DNA of 64,000 bases, taken from positions 992,001 through 1,056,000 of the forward strand of contig CAXWPJ010000009.1 in assembly GCA_963664115.2 (NCBI GenBank). The letters are read 5' to 3'. The notes below the pieces were generated by a model. The model was not told the DNA's origin and ran no database searches. It saw only the letters and a list, made by a program, of their open reading frames with translations. Made by a program: the position numbers and the translations under genes. This DNA is from Terriglobia bacterium (GTDB taxonomy: Bacteria; Acidobacteriota; Terriglobia; 20CM-2-55-15). Shown here in pieces: positions 1,836-57,217 of the stretch. How positions within the stretch are numbered: the stretch's first letter is position 1; each line of letters opens with the position of its first letter.

Positions 1836-3965
1836 CTACCGGAAGGCCTCCGGGACGTTGAAGGTAAATATCGCGTTGTGTGTCTTGTCGGAAACCATCA
1901 CGTTCTGATTCCTGACATCGAGGGTGACGCCTCGCGCGTCCTTCAAGAGGACGTTCGGCCCGCCGATCGTCCACCGGGGCTCAGTGGGGCCGTCATCGAA
2001 GACGCTCCACACACCCACATAGTCTTCCTCCAGGAATCGCCCGCCGGGACGGACGACTCCGAAAATCATTCCGTTCTCCGGATTGCTGGTCAGCAACGAA
2101 ACTGCTGCCGCTGCATCACCGGTGATGACCCGGAGCGGAGGCGTGTTGCCCGAAGCCGTGCGATCGAAGATCTGGAGCTTGTCGCCGCCCGAGACGATCA
2201 GGAGATCGTGCACGGGGTCTATCGTCAGCCGGCCCGCAGTTAAATTCGTATCGGGTCCCTCCAGAGTCCGGAGGGGCGCCACATCGCCGTCCGCGTCCCG
2301 GTCGAAGACCAGCACCCGGCGGCCCTGGGGAACGAATATCTCCCCATGGACTGCATCTATGGCAAGAGCCTGCGGATTATGTATTTGCGTGCGGGGTCCC
2401 ATAATCTGGCGGACGGGCGCCGCGTCGCCATCCGCGCCCGCGGCGAAGGTGAGAATGGAAAGGTTATACCAACCGGGTACAAGGATCTCATCCCGCACCG
2501 GGTCGTAGGCCATGTCGTGAATCGTGCGTGTGAAATTAGTATTCTGTCCGGCAATGGACCGCGTCGCCGTTGTGCTCCCATCCGCCAGCCTGGCGAATGC
2601 CGCAATCTGCGGGTGGCCCACTCAGTTGCCGCCGAGGATTTCCTCGCGCCGAGTGTCGTACGTGATCGTGTGGACGTTTGCGAGCATGGGCCCGCGGGAG
2701 TCGGCGGGGCCGCTGCGAATCACGCGCGTTGGCGTAGGATCTCCTTCAGCGGTAATGTCATACACGGTCGCGGAGTGACTGCCCAGATTGGCGACCCACA
2801 GCTCGTCGTTGGTCAGGTCCAGCTTCACCCCGACAGGGTGGTTGATCAACGAGTTTGGACCCTGGAGGACTCGAATAGGAGCGGCGTTGCCGTCCGCATC
2901 GGCGCTGTAAACCGTTACCGTATGGCCGGTGTCATTGGCGACGAAGATCTCGCCCCGTTCCGGATGCACCGCGATATCGGTCGGCCAGTTCAGCAAGGTG
3001 TTAGGTCCCTGGATCACCTGCAAGGGTGCGACATTCCCCTGGGCATCCTTGCGGTACACAGTAATGGAGGGCGGCTCGTTCCGTCCCGAACCCGGAATGT
3101 TGGCTTCGCGCCCGACGGGCCAGTTGGCTTTTCCTTCTCCACGATTCAGGGTGGTCGGCGCGTCTGTGTCATAGTGGCGGTCCGCCACCGTACCCCAATT
3201 GGTGACAAAAATCAGGCCCGCGCTCGAGTCCACGGCGATCCCATGGGGATCGGCCAATCGCGTGGCCGATCCCTGGATCAGCCGCACGGGGGACTCTTCG
3301 TCCTCGGCCGATTTCCGAAAAACTGAGACCGCATGATCGTCCTGGACGGTCATGAAGATTTCCTGGGTCGCTTCATCGATGGACATCCGAACGGTCGTGT
3401 GCGGTGTGGCCAGTTTCCTCTTCGGCGCCACATTCCCTTGAGCGTCACGGCCCCAGACCGTCATCCAATTCAAGGTGTCGTTGTTGATGGCATAGATGTC
3501 GCCGCTTTCGGGGTCGATATAGATGCCGCAAACGTACTCCAGGAAGGTGTTCTCTCCCTGAATCACCCGTCTGGGTTCGCTGAACGCAGCAGTTGGCGGT
3601 GTATTCGTCATCCGGTCGTAGACGACGATGCTGAAATTATTTTCGTCGCCAGCGACAAGTTCACCTCGGATGGGGTCGATGTCAATGGCGGCAAACACAT
3701 GACGGGCGTCATGGATCGTACGGATGGGCGGTCTGTTCGCCACCGCCGCTCTTTCCGCCTCGCTCGGCCGGGGGGGAGGGTCCGTAGCCGCTCCTGCTTG
3801 GGCGCCTTCAACCAGCGCCATCAGACTCCCTGGAGCGCTGGCGGCCATCAGAATTGTCTGCCCGTTTCCGTCCGGCCCCAGCTGCCCGTTTTGAGGCAAC
3901 GCGCCGACAGCCACCGACAGACATAAAACCAGTGAGATCATTAAAATCCACTGCCTTGGTTTCAT
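1836..3965 (-). CDS. Secreted NHL-repeat beta-propeller protein, predicted selenoprotein (Sec at TGA 2622-2624; about 709 aa)
   Basis: ORFs 2622-3965 and 1836-2621 abut in frame (...EEILGGN-TGA-GTG GHPQIAAFARLADG). The TGA falls inside a blade repeat. The paralog at 13340 has the same TGA. A SECIS-like hairpin lies downstream. Signal peptide MKPRQWILMISLVLCLSVAVG, with a GAGGAGG RBS. Confidence 0.85.
2579..2599 (-). promoter_or_regulatory. Putative bacterial SECIS hairpin (propeller 1)
   Basis: mRNA CAUUCGCCA-GGC-UGGCGGAUG begins 22 nt after the UGA. The loop starts with G. Confidence 0.75.
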
Positions 3966-12502: not shown

Positions 12503-14569
12503 TCAGAAGATCTCTGGAACCGAAAACACCAGAATGCCGTTCAAGCGCATATCGGAAATAATCACTTCCTGGTCTTCAGGGTTCAATACCACTCCAAAGG
12601 GTTTCTTCAGCGTTGTCGTCGGTCCCGCCGGGAGCTTCCAAAGCGGCGGAATGTCCCCGTTATCTTCGTAGCTCCATACGCCTAAAAAGGCGCCCTCCGG
12701 TTCCATGTGATCTCGAATCCCGGGCATCGCCGCGACGATCAGCTTCCTCTGTGGATAGACCTGCATCTGGTTGATCCGTACAATCCCCGAATTCGGACCG
12801 CGGATTACGGCCCGCGGCTTTACGTTTCCTTCGTCCGTCCGGTTAAACACCAGGAGCGCGCCCCGCTGGGCGTCTGGTGACCGAGAACTACCGAAGGAGC
12901 TGTTTAAGCCGACTACCAGAATGTCGTTGATCGGATCCACGGAAACCACATTAACGGATTCCAAGCCGGTGTCGGGACCCTCGATGATTCGAAGGGGCGC
13001 AACGTCACCGTTGGCTTCGCGCGGATATACCTTAATACTGTTGCCGCTGTAGGTGAAAATCTCGTCGTGAATGGGGTCCACATCCAAGCGGCTGCCTATC
13101 GTTCCGGTCCGGGGGCCCTGTATGATTCGAATGGGTGCTTCCTGTCCATCGGCGCCTCCGCGGAACGTCAGGATCGCCTCTGCAAACGGGTTGGGCACAA
13201 GAAATTCATCGTTGATTTCATCGTAGCGGATGTCGTGCATGGTTCGCGACAGCTTGCTCGCCTGCCCGAAAACGGCCCGTTCGGGTTGCTGTGCTCCGTC
13301 CGCCAGCCTGGCGAACGCCGCAATTTGCGGATGGGCCACTCAGTTGGGCACCAGAATTTGATCCCGTAAGGTGTCGTATCCGACAGCCCCCGGGTTGCCG
13401 ATGTTGAGCGACAGTCTATCCGCCGGTCCAGATCGAATCGTGCGCGATGGGCTAACATCCCCGTTGGCCGTCACCGGGTACACCGTCACCGAGGCATTTC
13501 CCATGTTCGCAACATAGAGTTCGTCGTTGGTGGGATCGACCGTGATTCCGGGCGGATGTTTGATTCCGGTGTTCGGCCCCTTGATGACGCGGATCGGAGC
13601 CACATCACCCTTGTCTGACATCCGAAAAACCAGGACAGAGTCGTCAGCGTCATTCGCAAGGAACAATTCCTGCCGCTCCTCGTGCAAGGCCAGATGCGAA
13701 GGCCAATTCATCAATGTCTGGGGTCCTTCGATGATCCAGAGAGGCTCCGTATTTTCCGACGCCTCCAGGGGATACACGGTGATTGATGGAGACTCGAACT
13801 TCCCCCATTCCCGTGGGCGCGTACCGGCTGGAGAACCGGGCGGTGGCGCCACGGTCTCCCGACCGTTTCCGTAATTGCTCACGAACACCAGGTTGTTACT
13901 CGCATCGATCGCGATCCCGTGGGGATCTTCCAGCTGCGTGTCGTTCCCACGCAACACGCGAAGCGGTTCCTCTTCACCCTCCGCACCCTTCCGATAAACA
14001 TAGACCGCGTTCTGGTGCTGCACCATCAGGAACATCTCCTGTCTCTCTTCGTGCATGGCGATCCCGAAGGTTCCGTGGGGTGTGGCCAGCACCCGCGTCG
14101 GTGTCGCGTTACCCCGGGCGTCGGGAGAAAAAACAGGCAGCCAGTCCTGCGTGTCGTTGTTGACGACGTAAATCTCGCTGGTGACCGGGTCGATATAGAC
14201 CCCGCACATCATCTCCGCAAACGTGTCCGGCCCGGAAATAACCCGTCTCGGCTCCGTGAAAAGTGCCGACGCGGGAGTGTCGGAGCGACTGTCGAACTCC
14301 AGGATCTGAAACAAGTTCTCATCGGTGACGACGAGCATGTTGTTATCCGGATTCACCGCCACCGCGCTTAATGAAGGGTAGGGATCCTTAATAAACCGAA
14401 GCGGGGCCCGTTCGATCAACACGGTCTCTCGATCTCCTCCGCCCTGCGCGTATGCGACCTCTGAAATCTTCCAACTTCCAACCACGATTGCATCCGCTAG
14501 CGACACGATCAAGCCGAGGCAAATCGTCGATAGCAGCCAGATCCTCCAGTTATGACCACCTTGATTCAT
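12503..14569 (-). CDS. Secreted NHL-repeat beta-propeller protein, predicted selenoprotein (Sec at TGA 13340-13342; about 688 aa)
   Basis: ORFs 13340-14689 and 12503-13339 abut in frame (...DQILVPN-TGA-GTG AHPQIAAFARLADG). Start ATG 14569 follows AAGGAGG. Signal peptide present. Paralog of 1836-3965. Confidence 0.85.
13297..13317 (-). promoter_or_regulatory. Putative bacterial SECIS hairpin (propeller 2)
   Basis: mRNA CGUUCGCCA-GGC-UGGCGGACG, 22 nt after the UGA. The A-U pair of copy 1 is replaced by G-C. Confidence 0.75.
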
Positions 14570-14773
14570 TACGGAACCTCCTTCACATTCGACTAAATTC
14601 GACCCACGTCTCCCTGCAGGCCGTGATTCATCGCAAGACCGATAATAACGACCAAACAGCGGGGATGCCCGGAAAATCGTTGAAATCATATCGATGTTCT
14701 TTGCTTAAGCCTTTCTTTTGGGACGACGGGGGAAACAATGTCACGAAGCGGCATCCTGCGTCAGAAACTGCTG

Positions 14774-56207: not shown

Positions 56208-56376
56208 AAAGCCTGGATCAAACCCCACCCTCGAGCAGTAGTGATCATCCAGGCCCCGGGTCAATGATGCCGCAAGCGAACTCGCCTGGAGCGCCATCGA
56301 TCGCCGTCCGCGTCCAGACTTGAGCCTTGACACTCGGTCGCGGTTTATATATTTATTTACTAGGAGATAGATCATC

Positions 56377-56697
56377 ATGGCATTGGACCCTAAGCGGGTT
56401 GGCTTGGTTTCCATCGTCGCGGCTCTGCTCACCCCGAGCTGATGAGTGTTGGCGCCGGTCCTGGCAGGACTGGGTTTGTTTTCGTCGTTCAGCATCATGT
56501 GTCTGGTCTGGCTCGAACGACTGCAGCCGCTGTTCTTCGTGCTGGCCGTCGCAGCGCTGGCTTACCAGATCTGGCTCGTGCGCGGCAGTCCACTATTCTT
56601 ACGCACCTGGGCAGTCAAGACGGTGCTGGGCGTCACTCTGGCAGTAAATGGATTGATGATTACGGGCTGGGTCGTGATAACGATTCGGTATTGGTAA
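56377..56697 (+). CDS. MerT-like heavy-metal transport membrane protein, predicted selenoprotein with tandem Sec-Sec (TGA TGA at 56440-56445; 106 aa)
   Basis: AGGAGA RBS, then MALDPKRVGLVSIVAALLTPS-TGA-TGA-VLAPVLAGLG...WLERLQPLFFVLAVAALAY. The TGAs sit at the MerT 'S-CC-xxP-xL-xxLG' position. About 3 TM helices. A hairpin follows and an HMA gene lies downstream. Confidence 0.78.
56455..56473 (+). promoter_or_regulatory. Putative SECIS hairpin (MerT-like gene)
   Basis: CCGGUCCU-GGC-AGGACUGG. The loop is 17 and 20 nt after the two UGAs and has the same GGC apex as the propeller hairpins. Confidence 0.65.
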
Positions 56698-56701
56698 ACG
56701 A

Positions 56702-57217
56702 ATGTTGTTAGACATCATGAGAAAAAACATGAAGATGTATCAACTGATCTTGCTACCGTCCGCGCTTATGATTGCGTTGGCGATGCCAGCATTGGCTCAG
56801 GTCGAAATGGTTGCGATGCGCACCATAGGTATCGAGTGCGGTGTTTGCGCCGCCGTTTCCGAGATCAATCTCCGACGCATCGAGGGTGTGGATAAGGTAA
56901 CAATCAGCAAGTCCAACGAATCGGTAATGATTGCCTATGGCCCGGGCGCTCTTTTCCAACCCGAAGAGATTCGCGAGGTACTGGCGCCGCTTTTTGTCCA
57001 GATTAAGGTGTTCCAGGTCCGGGCGCGGGGAATTGTCCAGGAGCAGGACGGAAAACGGTTTTTCGTGGCGGGCAAAGACCGGTTTGTTCTTGCCCCGGCC
57101 TCCCCAGGTACCCCTGAAGTTCCCTCTGGGACTCCCGTGGTGATCGAAGCGGTCCTCGACGACACGCCGAATCCTATGGAACTGACCGTCCTGACCTTCA
57201 AATCGGTCGCGGAGTAA
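56702..57217 (+). CDS. Exported heavy-metal-associated (HMA/MerP-like) protein with a C-terminal extra domain
   Basis: Signal peptide, then IGIECGVCAAVSEINLRRIEGVDKVTIS (GxxCxxC...L...GV). Starts 4 nt after the MerT-like gene. Confidence 0.78.
   Translation: MLLDIMRKNMKMYQLILLPSALMIALAMPALAQVEMVAMRTIGIECGVCAAVSEINLRRIEGVDKVTISKSNESVMIAYGPGALFQPEEIREVLAPLFVQIKVFQVRARGIVQEQDGKRFFVAGKDRFVLAPASPGTPEVPSGTPVVIEAVLDDTPNPMELTVLTFKSVAE

Follow-up and report, generated by a model that had tools for sequence, protein, structure and literature searches.

With regard to selenocysteine (Sec) in metal-binding membrane proteins, the mercuric transport proteins of the MerT type are the closest described systems. 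Cys24 and Cys25 of MerT and the hand-over from MerP are set out in PMC5715351. MerT selenoproteins with a single Sec, in a Cys-Sec pair, are known from Table 1 of PMC13188914 and from bioRxiv 2022.07.06.499078, which bears out the statement in a preliminary description of the present locus that single-Sec mercuric-transport-like proteins had been listed before. The 119-family catalogue of 2026 contains no UU motif (PMC13188914, Table 1). Two consecutive Sec residues have been predicted for algal PDI_e with the motif GUGUU, called the first such case in PMC7539508. Sec-Sec in bacteria was not found in full-text literature searches, with supplements or BSepDB as places that could hide UU sequences, and it is not mentioned in the accessible parts of the BSepDB and deep-Sep descriptions.

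Here we describe a gene with two adjacent in-frame UGA codons that lies in the window, i.e., the whole stretch of 64,000 nucleotides analyzed. The tandem-UGA gene is confirmed as real, conserved and unannotated. Judging from its sequence features, both UGAs are very probably decoded as Sec via one SECIS, and a Sec-Sec soft-metal permease acting together with a periplasmic chaperone is the best reading of the locus and one that we consider probable on balance.

The tandem-UGA gene, its conservation and its relation to MerT

The reading frame starts at ATG 56377 and comprises 21 sense codons, TGA TGA and a stretch that stays open until the TAA at 56695-56697; ribosome binding site, start, UGA pair and open frame were all found in the sequence as first described (Table 1). 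The length of 106 residues counts U22 and U23, and databases list an 83-aa piece of the protein that starts at 56446. A scan of the plus strand gave no sigma-70-like promoter. Many loci (L013, L055, L057, L062, L063, L065, L072, L074, L086 and L092) share a TATAGT hexamer some 20-30 nt ahead of codon 1, a recurrence that suggests an own promoter and a short leader.

Table 1. Features of the tandem-UGA locus, in positions of the window
Feature	Position	Strand	Basis
Shine-Dalgarno-like AGGAGA	56362..56367	+	9 nt upstream of ATG; seen in sequence
MerT-like membrane protein, 106 aa, with two UGA read-throughs	56377..56697	+	ORF, conservation, profile alignment
Tandem TGA-TGA as codons 22-23, putative Sec-Sec in place of the vicinal Cys-Cys of MerT	56440..56445	+	conservation, Cys-Cys relatives
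Cys42, invariant third chalcogen ligand (predicted periplasmic loop helix)	56500..56502	+	conserved in relatives
SECIS-type hairpin, 8-bp stem, GGC loop 56463-56465	56455..56473	+	loop position, covariation, frozen synonymous sites
U-rich tail directly 3' of the hairpin (intrinsic-terminator-like)	56474..56483	+	T counts in relatives
Possible lower stem, 56437-56446 (both UGAs) with 56481-56489	56437..56489	+	pairing; weak covariation
Exported HMA (MerP/CopZ-fold) protein, signal peptide, C-terminal small beta domain	56702..57217	+	likely start 56729
CxxC (GIECGVC) of the HMA partner	56837-56848	+	sequence

Eight public runs were compared at the TGATGA site, two of which (X14 and X16) were without coverage. 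The six letters are unchanged in contigs from all six covering runs, namely X1, which may be the source sample, X2, X5, X7, X11 and the RNA library X15, so that independent assemblies answer the question of a sequence error raised in the preliminary description with identical letters. The RNA-library contigs span TGATGA, the expression level not being readable from contigs, and DNA near-identical to the locus was found in runs labelled as sponge or seawater metagenome. An assembly error, a pseudogene or a genome-wide reassignment of UGA has next to no probability: the genome stems from an uncultured organism and two gene calls made with UGA as Trp, P0010 and P0098, have WW at the site, but the letters hold in 6/6 covering runs and over 63 divergent sequences, TGA serves as the terminal stop of the gene itself in 11/63 relatives, the tRNA-Trp of the window genome has the anticodon CCA, and its tRNA-Sec is the only one among 52 tRNAs with a UCA anticodon. 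The window genome holds 3071 occurrences of TGATGA, 72 of them with a G-loop hairpin of at least 7 bp, and four of these 72 are flanked by open frames of 21 codons upstream and 80 codons downstream. The pattern is thus not unique within the genome, and the proof lies in conservation.

TGA-TGA is kept in 112/112 loci, i.e., the window, 31 species genomes and 80 metagenome relatives, the best among 192, a count that describes the UU clade and not the whole family since the search words, which lay downstream of UGA-UGA, demanded RLQP-type motifs absent from two Cys-Cys proteins. After dereplication (<90% nucleotide identity) the pair is present in 63/63 sequences, and among 151 related genomes it occurs in 21/21 strong matches, a set that overlaps with the 112 loci. 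By title, the 31 species genomes comprise 28 from Acidobacteriota or subgroups and one each from Armatimonadota, Verrucomicrobiia and Clostridia. Within the class, the UU family occurs mainly in two taxonomic families; in an even sample of the phylum it appeared in 0/400 other genomes, and this sample is therefore unable to test co-occurrence. The family profile matches 473 protein clusters, and among the 120 matches listed most are 83-aa pieces; the first 28 protein matches start at or after column 24, save one that was called with UGA as Trp and reads WW.

Several features argue for one continuous protein. Codons 2-21 are stop-free in 63/63 sequences, the other two frames containing a stop in 44/63 and 13/63, and they vary mostly at third positions. 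Codon 1 is a start codon (ATG, GTG or TTG) in 57/63 relatives and is preceded by an SD-like motif of at least 4 nt in 39/61. Downstream of the UGAs, the 83 residues show conservation at the protein level. It is very unlikely that UGA-UGA is a true double stop behind a 21-residue leader, followed by an 83-residue protein from GTG 56446 or from an out-of-frame internal ATG. Gene callers do give the 83-aa form, and 97/112 loci have GTG or ATG as codon 24, but this codon is ATC, CTG or GTA in the remaining 15/112 and no SD-like motif precedes it in any of 61 relatives, findings that bear directly on the start at GTG 56446 which the preliminary description had set against its own reading. The 21 codons ahead of the UGAs vary in the manner of coding sequence, and a ribosome binding site precedes them but not codon 24; a restart is therefore unlikely. 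The ORF from the ATG inside TGATGA ranges from 16 to >200 codons and is not conserved in length; codons 22-23 are never TAA or TAG, yet 52/63 relatives terminate the gene itself with one of these two stops. The joined sequence, moreover, is colinear with MerT, and full-length Cys-Cys relatives exist.

When the profile of the UU family was aligned with MerT (P0087; probability 96.4, E 1.1e-9), the UU column fell on CC, and the vicinal ligand pair followed by xxP is present in the UU protein as U-U-V-L-A-P or U-U-x-x-P. The search with MerT models gave a divided answer: Pfam MerT (PF02411) is matched by 62/62 family members at E<=0.05 (best E 1.1e-7), but the window protein itself, with 16.8 bits, stays below the cut-off of 32.9 bits and is far below the cut-offs of the NCBIfam MerT models. 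An HMM search against 1.84 billion representatives yielded two close full-length proteins with PSCCIGLP, P0030 and P0031 (105 and 102 bits), and a remaining tail of MerT proteins. Pfam MerT was found in 35 of 36 matches scanned, above cut-off in 31, and CC in 31/31 of the latter, the search profile having C at the UU columns and thus favoring CC matches. Tabulated as the preliminary description had suggested, the two columns read UU in 112/112 loci and CC in the close relatives and MerT, with no CU or UC form among the homologs collected; the proposal that tandem UGA stands at the MerT Cys-Cys columns is thereby upheld. Among ordinary MerT matches from 401 genomes of the phylum, 0/61 have an internal stop, and ordinary MerT loci of the phylum have CC in 26/31, with five unparsed (one genome flagged as unpublished, G079, is included in the ordinary MerT tally). 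P0031 gave no match when compared with plasmids. In a tree of 42 rows, the two Cys-Cys proteins fall inside the UU clade with a support of 81/88 and an unsettled bootstrap; we do not infer from this placement that UU has reverted to CC.

The characterization of the product as a MerT-like transporter stands with regard to the alignment and to the pair followed by xxP; it does not extend to a cytoplasmic Cys pair between helices 2 and 3 or to the context of a mer operon, both of which are absent. Apart from the UU pair, Cys42, which is invariant in 62/62 sequences, is the one Cys or His position conserved among 57 full-length sequences. The structure model has three helices at low confidence (pLDDT 59.5), and hydropathy is high with helices that are not cleanly separated. 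With this low-confidence model, Foldseek gave no match and a fold search gave unrelated helical hairpins (best Z 7.6). Neither a relative of solved structure by sequence nor, as weak evidence, a fused longer form of the UU protein was found.

The hairpin and the selenocysteine machinery

The GGC-loop hairpin reported after the UGA pair was confirmed as a covarying 8-bp stem with the sequence CCGGTCCT-GGC-AGGACTGG. Its loop is located at +21 from the first and +18 from the second UGA and occupies the same place in 61/63 relatives. Covariation comprises three pairs and 15 cells with compensatory change (0/500 shuffles for cells), 93% of the hairpin cells are paired vs. 22-61% when slid, and the four-fold sites of codons 28-32 are nearly frozen (0-0.51 bits vs. 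a mean of 1.56 at 34 other sites). With its GGC loop, 8 bp, spacings of 20 and 17 nt and -13.4 kcal/mol, the hairpin agrees with the bSECIS model, the rule for which is a loop of 3-9 nt with G in the first two places, a stem of 4-16 bp, a spacing of 16-37 nt and an MFE <= -7.5 (PMC13188914, section 5). Rfam gave no match.

Insertion of Sec in bacteria is believed to be sensitive to how far the UGA lies from its hairpin. Upstream of six molybdopterin matches in the window genome, a Sec-type formate dehydrogenase was not evident, and other Sec genes were therefore used to calibrate the spacing, namely 12 single-UGA genes of known selenoprotein families from the same genome. A G-led loop was present in 11/12 of these candidates, at +18 (2), +21 (1), +22 (4), +23 (1), +24 (2) and +27 (1); the +18 genes encode rhodanese and a SelW-like protein, the +21 gene SelD. 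Nine of the 11 loops thus lie at +21 or further, with +18 as the short edge. The host genomes contributed 24 Sec-type selD genes, whose first predicted loop lies at +14 to +22, most commonly at +21 (9). The first UGA of the pair is at usual spacing and the second at a short but used edge, where it may be decoded less well. Chen, Fang and Inouye reportedly shifted the fdhF UGA by one codon in 1993 and still saw it decoded in E. coli.

These distances are also what speaks for a product with Sec at the first UGA alone, the other being read at a low rate by a near-cognate tRNA (Cys or Trp) to give a mixed, scarce product: the +21 of the first UGA equals the selD spacing of the window genome, +18 is its lower edge, and the base of the hairpin begins just 9 nt beyond the second UGA. 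We hold this to be quite unlikely, given that a Cys codon could be TGY and yet TGY occurs in 0/112 loci, that two single-Sec genes of the window genome use +18, and that there is no other tRNA with a UCA anticodon. Under the preferred reading with two Sec residues, a SelB-GTP-Sec-tRNA complex would bind the hairpin and decode UGA22, a second complex would rebind the same, partly unwound hairpin and decode UGA23, and the product would be one 106-residue three-helix membrane protein with a Sec-Sec pair.

The window genome contains SelA, SelB, a Sec-type SelD and tRNA-Sec. Among the 31 host genomes, SelA is encoded in 29 and SelD in 28, and none is without both. SelA was found in 29/31 hosts vs. 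298/400 genomes of the phylum (p=0.007, the kin not being independent, and with the unpublished-flagged genomes G054, G079 and G177 included in the phylum tally), and among relatives there is no enrichment, with 18/21 carriers vs. 105/130 others (p=0.77; G518 and G541, likewise flagged, included). Co-occurrence with SelA as proof was rejected in view of this high background (298/400; 105/130); it is compatible with Sec decoding and not discriminating. Outside these background tallies and the ordinary MerT tally above, the flagged genomes support no claim made here. Three SelA-negative carriers all have SelB and Sec-type SelD, and tRNA-Sec exceeded the cut-off in two. One of these carriers, the 95%-complete genome G480, contains the UU gene, SelB, Sec-type SelD and tRNA-Sec and has no match for SelA, the result of either an assembly gap or an unusual Sec synthase. 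In one metagenome locus (L089), selA, recognized from sequence, follows directly downstream, 64 nt after the UU gene; in one genome (L191, on contig G469:C3) it is located about 6 kb upstream.

The rich selenoproteome of the window genome (G000) includes two deiodinase-like proteins, a DUF3179 protein, three peroxiredoxin-like proteins, a rhodanese, two ArsC-like proteins, a SelW-like and an OsmC-like protein and SelD, each of the 12 genes having one in-frame TGA (C12:267902-269095, C5:130789-131877, C2:359707-360750, C9:74511-75026, C2:700828-701961, C10:287922-288608, C10:243756-244118, C12:463034-463375, C2:141104-141397, C2:785898-786374, C2:298780-299184 and C9:453241-454323). An amidohydrolase-family gene (C12:491177-492679, minus strand) has an in-frame TGA at 491656 with coding-like sequence on either flank, which may stand for Sec or mark a broken gene. 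Eleven exported NHL-like beta-propeller paralogs of 700-770 aa carry an in-frame TGA in the motif N-U-V-x-H-P-Q. Two of their genes lie on the minus strand of the window (1836-3965, TGA 2624; approximately 12503-14689, TGA 13342) and nine more elsewhere in G000. In neighboring loci the site is U in 15 cases and C in four, with a G-loop hairpin at +32; the family had no match in the table of the 2026 catalogue, and in 19/112 loci such a gene lies no more than 6 kb from the UU gene.

The hairpin may have a further role. In 35/63 relatives at least five T are found in the 8 nt of the tail, vs. a simulated mean of 13.6 and a maximum of 27 in 2000 simulations, an excess over what codon usage would predict, and the codon for Leu34 is TTA in 26/47 cases vs. 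21/812 elsewhere. The lower stem, 84.6% of the cells of which are paired vs. 32-67% when slid, shows weak covariation and may bury both UGAs. Termination linked to SECIS under selenium shortage has been reported for fdhF of Treponema primitia (PMC3892789). Terminator-like hairpin, U tail, TTA bias and this precedent would all suit a mainly regulatory element, in which tandem UGA acts as a sensitive selenium gauge, stalled ribosomes let hairpin and U tail terminate and so gate the operon, and the membrane protein is of secondary importance. Such a purpose is hardly probable: the 83 post-UGA residues are conserved as protein, and the read-through product therefore matters; T-richness may partly stem from the lower stem; the 5-T tail is absent in 28/63 sequences, and these are related, so that the excess is overstated. 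With the membrane protein as the main product, the ribosome would stop at codon 22 under selenium shortage, and we regard it as conceivable, though doubtful, that hairpin and U tail would additionally stop transcription ahead of the partner gene as a secondary layer.

The HMA partner and the proposed function

The only consistently linked gene encodes an exported HMA protein. A GxxCxxC HMA gene is present downstream as described at the outset; its start, placed there 4 nt after the UU-gene stop, is more likely ATG 56729, to which the alignment with relatives points and which lies 31 nt after that stop. By tblastn the partner is present in 95/112 loci; six contigs are too short and 11 loci are without it, one of which has the partner on inspection, leaving about 10 loci with enough flank in which it is absent beside the UU gene. 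The structure model (pLDDT 94.9) shows the ferredoxin-like fold of HMA proteins, the CxxC being located at helix 1, and has an rmsd of about 2 Å over about 70 residues to CopZ, Atx1 and MerP. The protein stays below the cut-offs for Pfam HMA (14.0 vs. 24.8 bits) and TIGR02052 (32.3 vs. 92.55 bits), and its C-terminal domain gave a weak OB-fold row (E 7.5e-3).

The partner has CxxC in 79 loci, UxxC in 14 and an unparsed motif in 19; both Cys are invariant in 44 CxxC-type rows, and the UxxC copies have a hairpin of their own. On sequence grounds, this exchange is a predicted independent Cys/Sec pair in the same operon. Loci with a UxxC partner (G-I/V-T-U-x-x-C) are L023, L026 and L029-L040 and, further, L170, L172, L175, L178, L179 and L181; the copy in the window has Cys.

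The statement that merA and merR are not adjacent was borne out, and it can be widened: neither MerA nor Hg-MerR was found above cut-off in the 97%-complete window genome, and neither recurs among the neighbor clusters scanned. We envisage a topology with the N-terminus inside and with U22-U23 and Cys42 facing the periplasm. The Sec-Sec pair could then accept a soft metal ion from the exported HMA protein in the manner of the transfer from MerP to MerT, and the function would be the capture and uptake of a thiophilic metal. Scavenging of Cu(I) or Ag(I) seems more likely than Hg detoxification because MerA, Hg-MerR and a cytoplasmic Cys pair that would pass Hg on are all missing.

In animal thioredoxin reductase, a vicinal Cys-Sec pair is the redox centre. 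By analogy, Sec-Sec may be real and serve as a redox centre and not in metal transport, with a vicinal diselenide/diselenol and Cys42 exchanging electrons with the CxxC or UxxC of the partner, by which exported selenoproteins would be kept reduced. The same lack of MerA, Hg-MerR and the cytoplasmic Cys pair would fit this function, as would a genome rich in exported Sec proteins including the 11 beta-propeller paralogs, encoded near the UU gene in the 19 loci out of 112. We consider it the main rival, but rather unlikely in view of the metal-handling ancestry of both partners (MerT and the HMA fold) and of the fact that no thioredoxin-fold neighbor recurs among the UU loci scanned; the propeller genes are multi-copy, and their proximity may be chance. 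Beside the soft-metal permease as the preferred reading, we put forward tentatively a joint one, in which Sec-Sec from one SECIS would form a soft-metal or electron relay without MerA and the hairpin would be a selenium-sensing terminator; equally tentative is its wider content of a vicinal diselenol in the membrane with Cys42, a Cys/Sec periplasmic chaperone and hundreds of unannotated Acidobacteriota genes.

Comparison with described systems

One hairpin serving UGAs at +21 and +18 offers a natural test of SelB being used twice in a row, and the UU gene may serve as a model for the bacterial production of proteins with several Sec residues. In annotations, hundreds of UU genes appear as hypothetical proteins of 83 aa that miss the key residues. 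Chemically, Hg, Cu or Ag would be bound with unusual strength by a vicinal diselenol placed within a membrane helix, and a soft-metal site of this kind would bear on metal cycling by the abundant Acidobacteriota of soil and sea.

With the MerT/MerP pair (PF02411, TIGR02052) of the Tn21 and Tn501 mer operons, the UU system shares the chalcogen pair of helix 1 with xxP, followed by GxG and LxPxF, and an adjacent exported HMA protein with CxxC; three helices, as in MerT, are predicted by the low-confidence model. It differs from MerT in having UGA-UGA for Cys-Cys and an extra invariant Cys42, in lacking the cytoplasmic pair Cys76/Cys82 and in falling below the Pfam cut-off. Unlike mer operons, the UU locus is without merA and merR, and its partner has an extra C-terminal beta domain. 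The fusion model NF045683 is matched weakly by the UU protein (15.8 bits vs. 375); two other loci that match this model, L238 and L239, were rejected, TGA occurring there only as the merT stop. The UxxU metal-binding (seleno)protein NF041115 resembles the partner in having an HMA-like fold and Sec within the CxxC motif, and the match is weak (E 1.8e-6, 28 bits vs. a cut-off of 95); the partner differs in its mature length of 140 aa, its second domain and at most one Sec.

Algal PDI_e is eukaryotic, has a thioredoxin fold and relies on a 3'-UTR SECIS without spacing constraint, whereas the UU gene needs one in-frame bacterial SECIS for two codons at two distances. The known MerT selenoproteins likewise have Sec at the MerT metal-binding site, with one Sec listed for them and two UGAs in the UU gene; the latter is the UU form of MerT-like selenoproteins and not a member of the mer system.
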